Part shown: piece by piece, positions 55,224-62,852 of the stretch
Layout of the letters: every line of letters begins with the position of its first letter
Numbering within the stretch: position 1 is the stretch's first letter
Source: an uncultured Spirochaetota bacterium
GTDB lineage: Bacteria > Spirochaetota > B62-G9 > DRHN01
NCBI GenBank assembly: GCA_964583615.1
Contig: CAZOWM010000002.1
Span: 8,050-72,049 of the forward strand
Direction: 5' to 3'
Length of the DNA stretch: 64,000 nucleotides
The notes under the pieces: model-generated
Database searches by the model: none
What the model was told of the DNA's origin: nothing
What the model saw: the letters and a program-made list of their open reading frames with translations, nothing else
Program-made: the position numbers and the translations under genes

Positions 55224-56597
55224 ATGCAGGGTGCGGATCCATTTTCAGACCTCAGATCGATTTTCTACGCAGCGGTGAAAAGCGTCGACCCCTACGAACT
55301 GATGAAAAGGCACCTTTCTGTTGAAAAAAACTCCCTGACCGTGGAAACGGGTGGTGATCGCCTGAAATTCGACCTCGACAAGTACACGCATGTCTTCGTG
55401 ATCGGAGCAGGAAAGGCAACTGCAAAGATGGCGAAAGCGGTTGAGGAAGCGCTCGGGGATAGAATCACCGAAGGAGTCATCTCGGTGAAATACGGGCACA
55501 CTGAACCTCTTAAAAAAATCGTGACGCTCGAAGCAGGGCATCCTGTTCCTGACCAAAACGGTATCAGTGCCGCACAGGAGATAGAGAGAATCGCGCGGCG
55601 TGCGGACGAACACTCCCTGGTCATAAATCTCATCTCAGGAGGAGGGTCAGCCCTTCTCATTTCTCCCCTCCGCTGCGTCATCGAGGATGAAGACTGCACG
55701 CTCGGGCTCGAGGATTTCAGGCGCACTACTCAGGTTCTCCTCGCTTGCGGGGCAACAATAGAGGAAATGAACTGCATCAGGAAGCACATCTCGATGATAA
55801 AGGGAGGAAGGCTTGCGCGGATGATCGAACCTGCGGTAATGCTCAATTTTATTCTCTCAGATGTTGTAGGAGACAGGCTCGATACCATCGCATCCGGGCT
55901 CACGACATTCGACGACACGACATTTTCTGATGCTGTGCGGGTCGTCAGTACATACGGCATCAGGGATGCGCTCCCCGAAAAGGTCCTTCGCGTGCTCGAT
56001 GCGGGGAAAAAGGGCCTCATAGAAGAAACGCCGAAAAAGGGCGATCCCCTGTTCTCATCGGTGAAACACATTCTCATCGGAACAAACCTGACGGCGCTCC
56101 GCGCTGGTGAAAAACACGCGTCCACACGCGGGTACCACACACGGGTGCTCTCCTCGCGGATCACCGGAGAGGCCTCTGAAATTGCTCAGGTCTATCACGG
56201 AATCGCCCGTGACGTTCACCTTCACGACCTCCTGTGTAAAAAACCCGCCTGCATCCTCGGAGGCGGAGAAACGACTGTTACCCTGCACGGAAACGGGAAA
56301 GGAGGAAGAAATCAGGAGTGCGCGCTCTCATTTCTTTCTGCATTGAGCAGGGAAAGAGATCCGGAAGGGATATTCTTTCTCTCTGCAGCGACTGACGGAA
56401 ACGACGGCCCCACAGATGCTGCCGGCGCGTTCGCCTGCGTCGCGGTTCTTAAAAAAAGCGCATCTCTCCACCTGAATATCGGGGAATATCTTCAGAACAA
56501 CGACTCATACACTTTTTACGAAAAAACAGGCGCTCTTCTGAAGACAGGCCCCACGAACACCAATGTGTGCGATATACAGATCGTGCTCGTGGTGTAA
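55224..56597 (+). CDS. glycerate kinase (MOFRL family, glycerate 2-kinase)
   Basis: VFVIGAGKATAKMAKAVEEALGDRITEG and the C-terminal MOFRL domain (GGGETTVTL, GGRNQE). Start is ATG 55224 with AGAGGAG upstream. ATG 55209 is possible. Confidence 0.8.
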   Translation: MQGADPFSDLRSIFYAAVKSVDPYELMKRHLSVEKNSLTVETGGDRLKFDLDKYTHVFVIGAGKATAKMAKAVEEALGDRITEGVISVKYGHTEPLKKIVTLEAGHPVPDQNGISAAQEIERIARRADEHSLVINLISGGGSALLISPLRCVIEDEDCTLGLEDFRRTTQVLLACGATIEEMNCIRKHISMIKGGRLARMIEPAVMLNFILSDVVGDRLDTIASGLTTFDDTTFSDAVRVVSTYGIRDALPEKVLRVLDAGKKGLIEETPKKGDPLFSSVKHILIGTNLTALRAGEKHASTRGYHTRVLSSRITGEASEIAQVYHGIARDVHLHDLLCKKPACILGGGETTVTLHGNGKGGRNQECALSFLSALSRERDPEGIFFLSAATDGNDGPTDAAGAFACVAVLKKSASLHLNIGEYLQNNDSYTFYEKTGALLKTGPTNTNVCDIQIVLVV

Positions 56598-56757
56598 TTA
56601 CTGGAAATATGTCGCCGTCCGGTGGCCTTTGTGCGTGATCCATTCAAAGGCACCTGTTCACCTATACACCTTCTTTCAGCGCTTCGTAATGTTTTCTTGT
56701 TTTTTAATACGCCTTTTTCTGGTTTTCGCTCTGTGACTCTTTGAATACGCCTTTTTT

Positions 56758-56997
56758 TCAGCGTTCCTGTATGAGCTCCTCTTCCTGTCTTTGGACCTTC
56801 TTTTTTTTCTTTCTGTACCCGATGCTTCTCACGACAAATCCCAGACCGATACCTACGACAAACACGATCAGAATCATGACTGCCCTCTGTATGGATACGG
56901 ACCACGCGAGAAAGCTTACTTCAACCACTTCAACGTTTTGCACCATGAACACGATGACGATGATACCGATAATGATCCCGATGATGAATTTTCCCAT
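56758..56997 (-). CDS. small membrane protein, LapA/DUF1049-like
   Basis: 79 aa. Two hydrophobic segments separated by NVEVVEVSFLAW, and a Lys-rich tail. Confidence 0.5.
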   Translation of the reverse strand: MGKFIIGIIIGIIVIVFMVQNVEVVEVSFLAWSVSIQRAVMILIVFVVGIGLGFVVRSIGYRKKKKKVQRQEEELIQER

Positions 56998-57271
56998 GGT
57001 ACCCTCCTTGGATTTTCAAGTTATTGGTATATTGTACCTTATATTCCAGGAATTCAAAAGGGAAAAAGATTTAAAGGCACGTGTGCGCAAGGTTCGAAAA
57101 CCCGCGAACAGGCAACAAAACCGTCTGTTTGTCATTTTTTTTCATCTTCATTTCACTTGATATTTTTTACTTTTTCTGTCATCTTCTCTACAATTCGTTG
57201 ATCCCGAACACGGCACTCTTCGTCATATGAGGAAAAAATGAACAAATGAATTCTCCATCCCAAAGAGCGGT

Positions 57272-58396
57272 ATGGTTTCGATGAATGACATAGAACATAC
57301 TTTTCCCATTCCAGATTCAGAAAACGGTCAGGGCAACACTCTCCTCGACGGGGCGCTTTCCGACACTACAGAGATTCTCACTGACACTGAAAGCCAGAAA
57401 AAAATCGCCGCTTCACCTGAGTATCCTCTCGAAAAGCGTCTGGAGGCCTATGAGGACATATTCGAGTCTCAGGTCGGGGACACCGCGCTGAACAGGGCAC
57501 GCAATATAGAGCGCGAGATCGGCCTCCGTCAGATTTTTTTGAAGTTCGAAGGAGGTAACCCGACCGGAACCCAGAAGGACCGCATTGCATTCGCCCAGGC
57601 AATGGACGCGCTCCGGAGGGGATTCGATGCGATTACTGTGGCCACCTGCGGCAATTACGGCGTTGCGGTGGCACTCGCAGCATATCTTGCGGGCCTGCGC
57701 TGCTTTATATACATTCCCGAAACCTATCATACCAGTCGCGTTTCGGAAATCGAGAAGCTCGGCGCCCGGATCATCCGGGTTTCGGGAGACTACGAGCACG
57801 CAGTAAGCGTATCGCAGCAGACGGCTTCTGAAGAAGAAATCTACGACGCAAATCCCGGGGGAGAAAACACAGCCATTCAGCTCAGTGCCTACGGTGAAAT
57901 CGCATATGAGATATACGATATGCTCCGCGACGCTCCGGCAGCAGTGTCGGTGCCCGTGTCGAACGGCACCACCTGCGCGGGTATACACAGAGGGTTCCTC
58001 AGTCTGTACAGGCGGGGAAAGACATCGCGCATTCCGAAAATCATCGCAGGGTCTGCATTCAGAAAAAATCCCATCGTACAGGCGTATCTGAAAAACCTGC
58101 CTATGTGTGAAGATCTCAGATCAGAGCAAATACAGGAAACGAAGGTTAACGAACCCCTCATTAACTGGCACTCCATTGACGGTGACCACGCACTGGCCGC
58201 GATCCGCTCCTCAGACGGATTTGCGGCGTACGTTTCGGACAGGAACATGACGTACTATGCGCGAATCATCAGAGGGCAGGAGGGGATGAACGTGCTTCCT
58301 GCGTCCACCGCAGGACTCATCGCGCTCGTGAGCGCACACAAAGCAACCCCCCTTTCAAACGACCGGTATGTCGCGATCATCACTGGGAGAAAATAA
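57272..58396 (+). CDS. fold-type II PLP-dependent enzyme, threonine synthase-like
   Basis: LKFEGGNPTGTQKDR is the PLP-lysine motif of the ThrC/CysK family, closest to ThrC-type NPTGSFKDR. Gly-rich loop GNYGVAVALAA. Has a ~70-aa N-terminal extension. Its stop overlaps the next start (TAATG). Confidence 0.75.
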   Translation: MVSMNDIEHTFPIPDSENGQGNTLLDGALSDTTEILTDTESQKKIAASPEYPLEKRLEAYEDIFESQVGDTALNRARNIEREIGLRQIFLKFEGGNPTGTQKDRIAFAQAMDALRRGFDAITVATCGNYGVAVALAAYLAGLRCFIYIPETYHTSRVSEIEKLGARIIRVSGDYEHAVSVSQQTASEEEIYDANPGGENTAIQLSAYGEIAYEIYDMLRDAPAAVSVPVSNGTTCAGIHRGFLSLYRRGKTSRIPKIIAGSAFRKNPIVQAYLKNLPMCEDLRSEQIQETKVNEPLINWHSIDGDHALAAIRSSDGFAAYVSDRNMTYYARIIRGQEGMNVLPASTAGLIALVSAHKATPLSNDRYVAIITGRK

Positions 58397-60975
58397 TGAC
58401 TGAGTTTCCCGAGGGGAACGCCGTCGTGTACTGTGAGGGGGCGTTTCACACCACCAACGGAAAGACCGCGCACGGGCTCGTCCGAAGAACCAGGCGCTAC
58501 AGGGTGCTCTCGGTCATCGACTCACGGCAAAGCGGGAAGGACGCGGGAGCTGTGCTCGACGGGAAAAGAGCAGGGATTCCGATCTACCGCGGTGTAGAAG
58601 AAGCCGTGCGGAAGGCGCACGACGCAGGAACCGATGCCACTCATTTTGTCGTTGGGCTCGCTCCTGACGGTGGGCGGCTGAGCGCACGGGGACGTGATGA
58701 TGTGAAAAAGGCAATACGACTCGGCCTCAATGTGGACTGCGGGCTTCACGACATCCTCTCTGACGACAAAGAGATCGCTGACCTCGCACAAGAGCACGGG
58801 GTGAAAATTCGCGACGTGAGAAAACCTCCGCCCAGAGGTGAGCTTCACTTTTTTTGCGGAAAAATCGAGGAAGTGGATTCTCTGAAAATCGCAGTGCTCG
58901 GCACTGACTCTGCAATCGGAAAGCGGACAACAGCATGGATGCTTGCGGATGCGTTTGAAACTGCAGGGCTTGCCGTAGAGGTTGTGGGCACGGGCCAGAC
59001 CGCGTGGATGCAGGGAGTACGCTACGGTTTGATCCTCGATTCGTTGGTTTCAGACTTCGTCACGGGCGAGATTGAGCATGCGGTGTGGCTGGCGTGGAAG
59101 GAAAAAAAGCCCGATGTCATCATCATCGAAGGGCAGGGCAGCCTGCTCAACCCGGCCTACCCGGGCGGGCTCGAAATCCTCTCCGCCGGCCGCCCGGATG
59201 CAGTCGTGCTCCAGCATGCGCCCGCAAGAAAAATATACGACGGCTTTCCAGGCTATGCGCTTCACCCACTCCGCACGCAGATACGGGCAATCGAATCAGT
59301 TTCGGAAATTCGAATTGCCGCAATCACCGTGAACCACGAAGGGCTCGACAAAGCATCGATTCTCGACGCGAGCCGCCTGATTTCAATGGAGACAGGGCTT
59401 CCCGCGGTCGACGTGCTCGTGCACGGTGCAGCGGGGCTCCTTTCCCACCTCACACGGTTTCGCAACCGTGTGCATAGAAAGTATCTCGGCGCTCTCCAAC
59501 AAAGATTTACCGAGCCGAACAACACACTCGAACACCTCGTCGCGTTCGACACTCTTGAAATTGGACCGGTCCGGATATACAACGACCGTTTCAAAGCTCC
59601 TTACTCGGTGGTAAAAAACGGGACGGTCGACACCTTTGAGCTCATCTACCGCTTCGAGGAACACGTGTTTGATCCCGACGACGATGGGTCGAAAAATCTC
59701 GCGCACATGATTGCCGCTCAGGCCGCGATGAACTATGCGCTGTTCTGCAATGAAATCGTGTTCCGCGGCCCCTACGACGAGCATGACAAGCGATTCCTCC
59801 GGGAAATGGCGGAAAACACTGCCCGCGAAATCTACGTGAAAAAGCTGCTTGAACCGAACCCCTTTGTTGTCAAAGGGTTTCCGCAGACACCTGTGATCAA
59901 GAAACAGTGGTATGCAGCGGCGGAGCTCGTGTTTCCCGACCAAAAGGCAAGCGCGCACACCGCGCAGTGGCGAACCCGCAAAAACCGCTACGGAGTCCTC
60001 CTCAGCGGCGGCAAGGAAAGCCTCCTCAGCTTCGGAATTTTGAATGAGATCGGGAATGAGACACATCCCCTGTTTGTCAACGAATCGGGCAGACACTGGT
60101 ACACCGCACTGAACAGCTACCGCTTTTTCAGAGACCACGTTCCCCGCACGGCACGCGTATGGACGAACTCCGACCGTCTGTTCACGTGGATGCTCGGGCA
60201 TCTACCCTTCGTGCGCCACGATTTCTTCACCCTGAGGGCAGATGACTACCCGATCCGTCTGTGGACAGTCGCGGTGTTTTTGTTCGGCGTGCTCCCTCTG
60301 CTGAAAAAACGCGGCATCTGCGCCGTCGTCATCGGAGACGAGTACGATACCACAATAACGGCTGATTTTCAAGGTATTCCAAACTACGACGGGCTTTTCG
60401 ATCAGAGCATCTTTTTCGACCGCGCGCTCACGGACTATTTTCAAAAGAAGGGGTGGAATCTGGTCCTTTTCTCTATTGTACGCTCACTCTCCGAGTTCCT
60501 CGTTCTCAGGATGCTTGCCCAACGCTACCCGCATCTTCAAAAAAACCAGCTCTCCTGCCACATGACACACATCGAAAAGGGGCGCGCAGTTCCATGCGGA
60601 AAGTGTGAAAAGTGTCACAGAATCGTTTCAATGCTCATCGCGCTCGGTGACGACCCCACACAATTCGGTTACACAGAAAAGCAGGTTAGAAACTGCCTCC
60701 AAGGCCTTGCACACACGCATCTCCACCAGGAATCTGCAGTAAGCGAACACACGCGGTACCTACTCTCGGAGATGAACCGGATCGAGGCGCAGGAAACCTT
60801 GAGCCCCCATCCTGAAATCGAGCATCTCCGTTTCGACAGCGAAAACTCACCTATAAACGCGGTTCCAAAAGAGATCAGAGAAAAAGTCATTGAGCTGCAG
60901 ATGAAACACGCATCAGGGGCATTGAAAAAAAAAGGCGGTTCGTGGGTCTCATTTGACCCGATTTCAGATACATGA
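58396..60975 (+). CDS. fusion protein: N-terminal DUF1611 domain + C-terminal PP-loop ATP pyrophosphatase-like domain with Cys cluster
   Basis: 859 aa. Residues ~1-350: DUF1611-like with a P-loop-like IAVLGTDSAIGKRTTA. Residues ~530-860: LLSGGKES PP-loop (SGGxDS variant) at nt 60004-60021, and a C-terminal SCHMTH...VPCGKCEKCHR Cys cluster reminiscent of the QueC/ExsB zinc site. Confidence 0.7.
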   Translation: MTEFPEGNAVVYCEGAFHTTNGKTAHGLVRRTRRYRVLSVIDSRQSGKDAGAVLDGKRAGIPIYRGVEEAVRKAHDAGTDATHFVVGLAPDGGRLSARGRDDVKKAIRLGLNVDCGLHDILSDDKEIADLAQEHGVKIRDVRKPPPRGELHFFCGKIEEVDSLKIAVLGTDSAIGKRTTAWMLADAFETAGLAVEVVGTGQTAWMQGVRYGLILDSLVSDFVTGEIEHAVWLAWKEKKPDVIIIEGQGSLLNPAYPGGLEILSAGRPDAVVLQHAPARKIYDGFPGYALHPLRTQIRAIESVSEIRIAAITVNHEGLDKASILDASRLISMETGLPAVDVLVHGAAGLLSHLTRFRNRVHRKYLGALQQRFTEPNNTLEHLVAFDTLEIGPVRIYNDRFKAPYSVVKNGTVDTFELIYRFEEHVFDPDDDGSKNLAHMIAAQAAMNYALFCNEIVFRGPYDEHDKRFLREMAENTAREIYVKKLLEPNPFVVKGFPQTPVIKKQWYAAAELVFPDQKASAHTAQWRTRKNRYGVLLSGGKESLLSFGILNEIGNETHPLFVNESGRHWYTALNSYRFFRDHVPRTARVWTNSDRLFTWMLGHLPFVRHDFFTLRADDYPIRLWTVAVFLFGVLPLLKKRGICAVVIGDEYDTTITADFQGIPNYDGLFDQSIFFDRALTDYFQKKGWNLVLFSIVRSLSEFLVLRMLAQRYPHLQKNQLSCHMTHIEKGRAVPCGKCEKCHRIVSMLIALGDDPTQFGYTEKQVRNCLQGLAHTHLHQESAVSEHTRYLLSEMNRIEAQETLSPHPEIEHLRFDSENSPINAVPKEIREKVIELQMKHASGALKKKGGSWVSFDPISDT

Positions 60976-60987
60976 GGAGGAGCTTGA

Positions 60988-61788
60988 ATGACCGAACACG
61001 TTCGAAAAAAGCAGCATATCCTCGGAGAGCTCACATGGCCTGAGGCAAAAAAACATTTTAAACAGATCGATCTCGCGCTCCTTCCCGTGGGCTCCACGGA
61101 GCAGCACGGCCCGCACCTGCCGCTCGACACAGACGCATTCGACGCGGATTACCTCGCGCGCTCTGTTGCCTCCTCTTTTTCAGATCCCAAGCCGGTCGTT
61201 CTGCCGTTGATTCCCTACGGCGTCTCGTACCACCACATGGATTTCAGCGGAACCCTCAGTATCACGAACGAAACCCTCACCCGGCTCGTCTATGAGGTGG
61301 GGATGAGCGCTGCACAGCACGGAATAAAAAAACTCATCATCATCAACGGCCACGGCGGAAACACACCTTCTCTGAAAAACGCAGCGCAGATGATCAACAG
61401 AGACGCCCGCATTTTCACCTGCGTCGATACCGGAGAAACGAGCGATATCGACATCAGCAGAATAATCGAAACGCGGAACGACGCACATGCAGGTGAAATC
61501 GAAACGAGCACCGCGCTTGCAACACGCCCTCATCTCGTGGACGTGGAAAAGGCAAAAAAGTTTGTTCCGAATTTTTCCAGCAGATACCTAGATTTCAGCT
61601 CGAGCAGGAGTGTGGAGTGGTTCACACGGACGGAACTGATTTCCACCAGCGGCGTGCTGGGTGACCCGACAAAAGCGAGCAGGGAAAAAGGAGAGCGGAT
61701 CTGGCAGATCATGACCGAGCAACTGGTTCGTTTCGTTGCAGAGCTCATGAACATGACACTCGACGAGATCTACGAAAAACGGTACTGA
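60988..61788 (+). CDS. creatininase-family amidohydrolase
   Basis: LPVGSTEQHGPHLPLDTD and INGHGGN motifs of the creatinine amidohydrolase/ArfB/MftE family. GGAGGAG RBS. Confidence 0.8.
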   Translation: MTEHVRKKQHILGELTWPEAKKHFKQIDLALLPVGSTEQHGPHLPLDTDAFDADYLARSVASSFSDPKPVVLPLIPYGVSYHHMDFSGTLSITNETLTRLVYEVGMSAAQHGIKKLIIINGHGGNTPSLKNAAQMINRDARIFTCVDTGETSDIDISRIIETRNDAHAGEIETSTALATRPHLVDVEKAKKFVPNFSSRYLDFSSSRSVEWFTRTELISTSGVLGDPTKASREKGERIWQIMTEQLVRFVAELMNMTLDEIYEKRY

Positions 61789-61790
61789 CC

Positions 61791-62852
61791 ATGAAGATCA
61801 CTGCTATCGATACATGGGCAGAGCATATGGCACTCGAGGAGCCCTACCAGATCGCCTACGAGCGTGTGGAATCCGCAACAAACGTGTTCATGCGCATGGA
61901 GACGAACGCAGGCATTACTGGCTGCGGGTGCGCGGCACCTGACCGGCATGTCACCAAAGAGAGCGCTGATTCCGTTTTATCCGTAGTACAAAACATCGCG
62001 GCACCATATTTGAAAGGAAAAGACCCTCTTCGCTACTCCCTTCACCTCGAACGGCTGAAGCGATTTCTGAAAGGCCATCCTTCAGCGCTCGCGTGCATCG
62101 ACATGGCGCTTTACGACATCCTGGGAAAGGTCTGCGGGATGCCGCTGTGGAAGCTTCTCGGCGGATTTCGCACCCGCATCAAAACGAGCATCACCATCGG
62201 CATCATCCCTGTCACTGATACTGTAGCACGGGCAAAGGAGTACGTCTCTCAGGGGTTTTCCGCCATCAAGCTCAAGGGAGGGCTCAATCTTGATGAGGAC
62301 GTCCAAAAGGTGGCCGGTGTGAGAGAGGCGGTGGGGGGGAAAATCGAACTCAGGTTCGATGCAAATCAGGGCTACACGGTTGATGAAGCGGTGCGGTTTG
62401 TGAAAAAGACCGCCCCATTTCGCATTGAGCTCATCGAGCAGCCGACGCCTGCCGGTAACGCGCACCTGCTTGGAAAAATCTCCCGAAGCGTTCCCATCCC
62501 TGTGATGGCGGACGAAAGCGTTCACAGTTTACGGGATGCGTTCCGCCTCGCGCGCGGCGATCTCATCGACATGGTAAACATCAAGCTGATGAAGGTGGGC
62601 GGCATACACGAGGCGCTGATGATCAATGCAGTCTCACGCTCTGCCGGGCTCGAGGTAATGGTCGGGTGCATGGACGAGGCTGCGCTCGGTATCGCAGCAG
62701 GGCTTCATTTTGCCCTCGCACGCCCGAATGTGCTCTACGCGGATCTCGACGGGTTTCTCGGCCTGAAAAACGATTCCACAAGAAATGCAGTGATCCTCAA
62801 GAAAGGGACGCTCTATGCATCAAACGCGCCCGGCCTCGGTTTCGAGCTGTGA
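61791..62852 (+). CDS. enolase-superfamily dipeptide epimerase (L-Ala-D/L-Glu epimerase-like, MLE subgroup)
   Basis: KxK motif (SAIKLKGG), metal ligands in RFDANQGY and IEQP, and the second catalytic Lys region VNIKLMKVGG. 353 aa. Confidence 0.8.
   Translation: MKITAIDTWAEHMALEEPYQIAYERVESATNVFMRMETNAGITGCGCAAPDRHVTKESADSVLSVVQNIAAPYLKGKDPLRYSLHLERLKRFLKGHPSALACIDMALYDILGKVCGMPLWKLLGGFRTRIKTSITIGIIPVTDTVARAKEYVSQGFSAIKLKGGLNLDEDVQKVAGVREAVGGKIELRFDANQGYTVDEAVRFVKKTAPFRIELIEQPTPAGNAHLLGKISRSVPIPVMADESVHSLRDAFRLARGDLIDMVNIKLMKVGGIHEALMINAVSRSAGLEVMVGCMDEAALGIAAGLHFALARPNVLYADLDGFLGLKNDSTRNAVILKKGTLYASNAPGLGFEL

Follow-up and report, generated by a model that had tools for sequence, protein, structure and literature searches.

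A DUF1611 protein fused to a QueC-like PP-loop module in an uncultured Spirochaetota bacterium: a lineage-specific variant of a conserved five-module cassette

The window analyzed in this study, that is, the whole stretch of 64,000 nucleotides from an uncultured Spirochaetota bacterium, contains an open reading frame that raises two questions. Does a single protein of 859 residues really unite two enzymes, and what reaction would they carry out together? An earlier note on this DNA had proposed that the product of the frame is an unusual fusion of a DUF1611 protein with a PP-loop ATPase. All features described below lie on the forward strand, and their coordinates are those of the window.

The frame (58396..60975) is a single ORF starting with ATG, and this ATG shares one base with the TAA stop of the preceding gene. 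In most genomes DUF1611 and the PP-loop module are separate genes, and the gene contains the run of nine A (60935-60943) that the earlier note had pointed out near the 3' end. Both facts would fit an artefact, with two genes run together through a homopolymer error, a frameshift or a misassembly; joining by a frameshift or a sequencing error was the case that the note itself had named as fatal to its claim. However, the same 2580-nt gene was found with 0 nucleotide mismatches in three independent assemblies, two from Logan and one from JGI. The A9 run, identical in these assemblies, encodes KKK in frame with the conserved W850 downstream; it lies 30 nt upstream of the stop and far from the fusion junction. 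Furthermore, orthologues with the same fusion, 854-871 aa long, were present in about 30 protein clusters and in at least six Spirochaetota-type species-level genomes, and the reading frame is kept in them at 55-89% identity. We therefore give practically no credence to an artefact, and conclude that the 859-aa ORF is a real fusion of two neighboring enzyme genes and not a sequencing or assembly error. The halves are joined by a helical linker (aa 346-369; 59431..59502), which the full-length AF2 model folds into two helices (aa 346-355 and 357-369) and which is missing where the two parts are separate genes. The model had a pLDDT of 84.1 and a pTM of 0.84; judged solely from this pTM, it suggests that the two halves pack together.

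The N-half carries both DUF1611 domains in N-to-C order. The Rossmann-like DUF1611_N domain (PF17396) occupies aa 44-144 (58525..58827; E 7.9e-24, 84.3 bits against a gathering score of 22.6), and the P-loop domain (PF07755) occupies aa 152-348 (58849..59439; E 1.1e-61, 208.2 bits against 25). The P-loop-like motif that had been noticed here is VLGTDSAIGKRTT at aa 167-179 (58894-58932). Sequence matches in the PDB were 2g0t (E 4.5e-40), 2obn and 7xrj; each is 341-350 aa long, in agreement with the statement that DUF1611 proteins usually stand alone at about 350 aa. In the Foldseek comparison, the target-normalized TM scores of the N-half were 0.88 with 2obn, 0.82 with 2g0t and 0.72 with DgcN (7xrj), all with probability 1.0. 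Thus, the assignment of this half to DUF1611 was borne out by both profile and fold. One remark of the earlier note has to be corrected, namely that DUF1611 is uncharacterized: the family includes DgcN, a D-Glu N-acetyltransferase with a solved structure (7xrj), and is therefore no longer wholly without a known activity. DUF1611 enzymes of the DgcN type are acyl-CoA-dependent. The NCBIfam DgcN model (NF041892) gave the N-half 147.5 bits against a cutoff of 480; at the level of sequence, the N-half is a paralogue of DgcN and not DgcN itself.

The C-half, which we call the module, begins with a family-specific alpha/beta domain (aa about 380-487; 59533..59856) that AF2 predicted with pLDDT above 90 and with the topology strand-strand-strand-helix-strand-helix. 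This domain has the conserved motifs NLAxMIAAQ.A.NY.LF and ENTAREIYVKK, and family and fold matching returned no relative of it. The QueC-like PP-loop ATP pyrophosphatase core follows (aa about 528-750; 59977..60645). A further family-specific domain, delimited by AF2 secondary structure and including the A9 run, ends the protein (aa about 754-859; 60655..60972). In the core, the SGGKES that had been read as a PP-loop (aa 537-542; 60004-60021) lies after the first strand of a Rossmann-like fold, the position of the SGGxDS-type loop that defines the superfamily; its Asp is replaced by Glu in the fused clade. The core also contains NESGRHW (aa 562-568) and GDEYD (aa 647-651), and then the Cys4 motif C721/C734/C737/C740 followed by H741-R742 (60556-60621). 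This cluster, SCH-x10-PCGKCEKCHR at aa 720-742, is real as claimed, but its spacing is C-x12-C-x2-C-x2-C-H-R, not x13 in the first interval. Among 35 aligned homologues, S537, G538, G539, K540, S542, C721, C734, C737, C740 and R742 were all invariant. These results support the view that the module is a PP-loop ATP pyrophosphatase whose fold, with its C-terminal four-Cys site, is closest to QueC. Neither of the two outcomes that the earlier note had listed as refuting its reading, a lack of support for the two halves or an erroneous joining of two genes, was borne out. The four-Cys site of QueC binds Zn, and by analogy that of the module probably does so too.

The genes adjoining the fused gene encode enzymes of amino-acid and dipeptide type. 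The preceding gene, the first of the cassette (57272..58396; 374 aa; Pfam PALP, E 2.5e-51), encodes a fold-type II PLP enzyme with a conserved N-terminal extension. It is 'threonine synthase'-like and belongs to the PRK06381 clade, whose NCBIfam model gave 425 bits (cutoff 266), against 90 bits (cutoff 167) for the canonical thrC model TIGR00260; its best PDB matches were threonine synthases, followed by cystathionine beta-synthase (CBS) and O-acetylserine sulfhydrylase (OASS). Downstream lies the gene for a creatininase-family metal amidohydrolase (60988..61788; 266 aa; PF02633, E 1.3e-72), for which the nearest NCBIfam model was MftE (163.8 bits, cutoff 172). The last cassette gene (61791..62852; 353 aa) encodes an enolase-superfamily dipeptide epimerase matching YkfB 1jpm (E 3.4e-68), 3rit and 3jva in the PDB. 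In 54 cassette orthologues of the epimerase, the KxK and K acid/base pair (K160/K162 and K265/K268), the D/E/D metal ligands (D190, E216, D241) and the DxD motif (D318-x-D320) were all invariant, and the catalytic lysines align with K162 and K268 of YkfB. The DxD motif of dipeptide epimerases serves the ammonium group of the dipeptide. At position 24, Glu stands in 48 of the 54, as against Arg24 in YkfB.

Across at least 10 phyla, essentially all of the 80 species loci that we compared had the same order: PLP enzyme (directly upstream in nearly all), DUF1611, PP-loop module, creatininase-family hydrolase and dipeptide epimerase. Each part was 50-79% identical to its counterpart in the window, the module keeping 50-59% identity between phyla, and at least 569 species genomes of many phyla contain the cassette. 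The M24 peptidase, M20 peptidase and glycerate kinase genes upstream in the window fall outside this conserved unit. The fusions within the cassette varied. Fusion of DUF1611 to the module was seen in 6 of the 80 loci and fusion of the module to the creatininase in 67, the latter also in proteins of about 799 aa; one fusion of the module with a methyltransferase was found. The fusion in the window is a lineage-specific variant of a fixed cassette, the module being more often joined to the creatininase. DUF1611 and the epimerase were absent together from three loci (L042, L047, L075), which mirrors the DgcN/DgcA pair. On the chemistry of the DUF1611 partner, at which the earlier note took the fusion to hint, the conserved five-module operon tells more than the fusion alone.

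Flanking genes were not generally conserved in the 80 loci; a sigma-54 NtrC-type regulator flanks 12 of them and a YitT-type membrane protein flanks 7. We also considered a RiPP system, in which a PP-loop cyclase and an MftE-like peptidase would act on a precursor, and rejected it: a conserved small ORF was absent upstream, downstream and between the genes in the 80 loci, and the only recurring 'peptide' was the N-terminus of the PLP enzyme. A defense system was ruled out, PADLOC giving no match for any of the four operon proteins. As to a riboswitch upstream of the operon, there was no Rfam match at the gathering score in the whole window or at E<=1 within 56400-57400, and a tblastn search of PLSDB for a plasmid-borne cassette gave no match.

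What, then, does the module do? One reading is a true QueC paralogue acting on 7-deazaguanine, or a QatC/Cap9 defense enzyme conjugating a nucleobase to a protein. Several observations argue against this. Neither PF06508 (QueC) nor an NCBIfam QueC model matched the module even at E<=10, and PADLOC, as stated, was silent. In hhalign against the single E. coli QueC, the module profile aligned over the PP-loop/GRH segment only, with a probability of 8.5%, so that sequence alone cannot place the module in QueC. B. subtilis QueC recognizes 7-carboxy-7-deazaguanine (CDG) through Y-x-D (Y129/D131; GYPDC). By sequence comparison, the conserved E-x-D of the module is followed by an insertion and HYDGLYDQS, and no GYPDC-like string is evident. 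The analogy with QueC thus extends to the fold and the ATP chemistry but no further. Moreover, queD, queE, queF, tgt, QatA/B/D, Cap10/TGT and CD-NTase genes were not seen in the gene calls of L001 and L002, nor did any turn up among the gene clusters that recur in the flanks of the 80 loci, as judged by reading the commonest members of these clusters. The adjoining genes are those of amino-acid and dipeptide enzymes, and we regard a role in 7-deazaguanine chemistry or defense as very improbable. The likeness to LarE, which the earlier note had put beside that to QueC, did not hold: neither a closest fold match to LarE nor a larB/larC operon context was found. A sulfur-inserting enzyme of the LarE, TtuA or YcfA type would adenylate a carbonyl or carboxylate and replace O with S, and the Cys cluster would then hold an Fe-S center or donate sulfur; we judge this to have a small chance, though a larger one than the QueC/QatC reading.

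MurL deserves more weight, although we still think it unlikely that the C-half is a MurL-type ATP-dependent unidirectional epimerase. Such an enzyme would take an N-acyl amino acid or dipeptide supplied by the DUF1611 half and adenylate its C-terminal alpha-carboxylate; the activated residue might then invert, for example via an oxazolone, and the creatininase-type hydrolase would resolve the cyclic or activated species. MurL (NF041275) was the only NCBIfam family matched by the module family (12 of 13 stand-alone members), and one divergent member matched it over 225 residues, including the PP-loop region, at E 7e-10. MurL requires ATP and Mg, releases AMP, and is proposed to adenylate the alpha-carboxylate (PMC5808125, PMC8788868). 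DgcN, the relative of the DUF1611 half, N-acylates an amino acid, and an oxazolone needs such an N-acyl group. Against this, the MurL scores were local matches of 26-38 bits with a cutoff of 700. No Mur ligase or MurD2 was found in the L001 and L002 gene calls or among the gene clusters recurring in the flanks of the 80 loci. In addition, the operon already has its own enolase-superfamily epimerase, whose catalytic residues are all intact; this would make a MurL-like role partly redundant. The structurally closest enzymes, QueC and Cap9, make amides and do not epimerize. A search for MurL sequences with the most MurL-like member (P0248) as query returned 6 matches, none of them MurL.

Taken together, we consider it fairly probable that the 859-aa protein is a genuine bifunctional enzyme from a conserved amino-acid/dipeptide operon, in which the C-half adenylates an amino-acid or dipeptide carboxylate that is attacked by a nitrogen nucleophile and DUF1611 pairs with the epimerase. 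That is, two adjacent genes of a self-contained five-module operon would have fused, and the operon would process a small amino-acid or dipeptide-type metabolite. The N-half is by homology a DUF1611 enzyme; DgcN, the sole characterized member, acetylates the amino group of D-glutamate. The C-half may use ATP to adenylate the carboxylate of a pathway intermediate, releasing PPi and then AMP, and a nitrogen nucleophile may then attack the acyl-adenylate, the product being an amide or lactam; QueC and Cap9 are the models for this. Alternatively, the C-half could invert an alpha-carbon at the expense of ATP, as proposed for MurL. The creatininase might supply an amine or ammonia by hydrolysis, or open or remove a cyclic or N-acyl amide, and DUF1611 and the dipeptide epimerase would be a stereochemistry-handling pair analogous to DgcN/DgcA. 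The alternative fusions constitute Rosetta-stone evidence that three enzymes act together. A more tentative reading, to which we give somewhat less than an even chance, is that the cassette is a new widespread pathway in which a QueC/MurL-like adenylating enzyme, a DgcN-like acyltransferase and a creatininase form one complex for a metabolite with a D-residue or for a cyclized amino-acid or dipeptide metabolite; this metabolite would be made or salvaged and its side chain is probably non-acidic. In this reading, it is the alternative fusions that speak for a complex.

The module family and the cassette appear to be undescribed. The module, about 500 aa long, has no Pfam or NCBIfam model, and in the literature searched there was no paper on it and nothing relevant on DUF1611 or on a creatininase with a PP-loop enzyme or with an epimerase and threonine synthase. 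Current annotation labels its members 'creatininase family protein', 'NAD-dependent epimerase/dehydratase family protein' or hypothetical, which is a large blind spot for a family so widespread. DgcN, MurL and the dipeptide epimerases all handle the stereochemistry of amino acids or peptides; thus, a new D-amino-acid or dipeptide route is plausible. If the one-complex pathway reading is true, the enzyme family would be new, DUF1611 and the creatininase family would each acquire a new type of reaction, and MurL would be identified as a PP-loop enzyme. MurL, a target for narrow-spectrum antibiotics, has been said to 'lack known conserved domains'; the sequence bridge from the module suggests that it is a QueC-like PP-loop adenylating enzyme. 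The unit is experimentally tractable, being a defined set of four or five genes that is also present in cultured Desulfosarcina.

Compared with QueC (about 220 aa), the module is much larger, with the extra N-terminal alpha/beta and C-terminal domains, a beta-hairpin insertion at the position of the GYPDC motif, Glu for the PP-loop Asp in the fused clade, and amino-acid/dipeptide enzymes instead of queD/E/F or defense genes as genomic partners. QueC and Cap9 attach an ATP-activated carboxylate to NH3 or the N-terminus of a protein (PMC13279940). The module resembles MurL in size (447 aa) and, by prediction, in AMP-forming use of ATP on a peptide C-terminal carboxylate, which fits an operon with a dipeptide epimerase, but no MurD2 partner or cell-wall gene context was seen in its loci, and the window operon already has a separate epimerase.

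DgcN and DgcA, the latter an N-acetyl-D-Glu racemase of the enolase superfamily, convert D-Glu to N-acetyl-L-Glu (PMC11747546, PMC10845958). The window shares with this pair both DUF1611 domains, their superposition on 7xrj, and an enolase-superfamily partner that is lost jointly with DUF1611. In contrast, the window proteins score only 147 bits on the DgcN model (cutoff 480) and 162 on the DgcA model (cutoff 400), the enolase member is of the dipeptide-epimerase subgroup with DxD kept and Glu for Arg at position 24, and three more enzymes are obligatory partners. NAD synthetase and asparagine synthetase B are two-domain PP-loop amidotransferases. The cassette follows the same architectural principle, with a hydrolase domain next to a PP-loop adenylating domain or fused to it; however, its hydrolase is of the creatininase family and not a glutaminase, and the order is PP-loop, then hydrolase. 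No member of the creatininase family is known as an ammonia donor, and the transfer of ammonia or an amine in the cassette is purely what we infer. GMP synthase likewise offers a precedent for a hydrolase fused to a PP-loop domain (PMC13329287).

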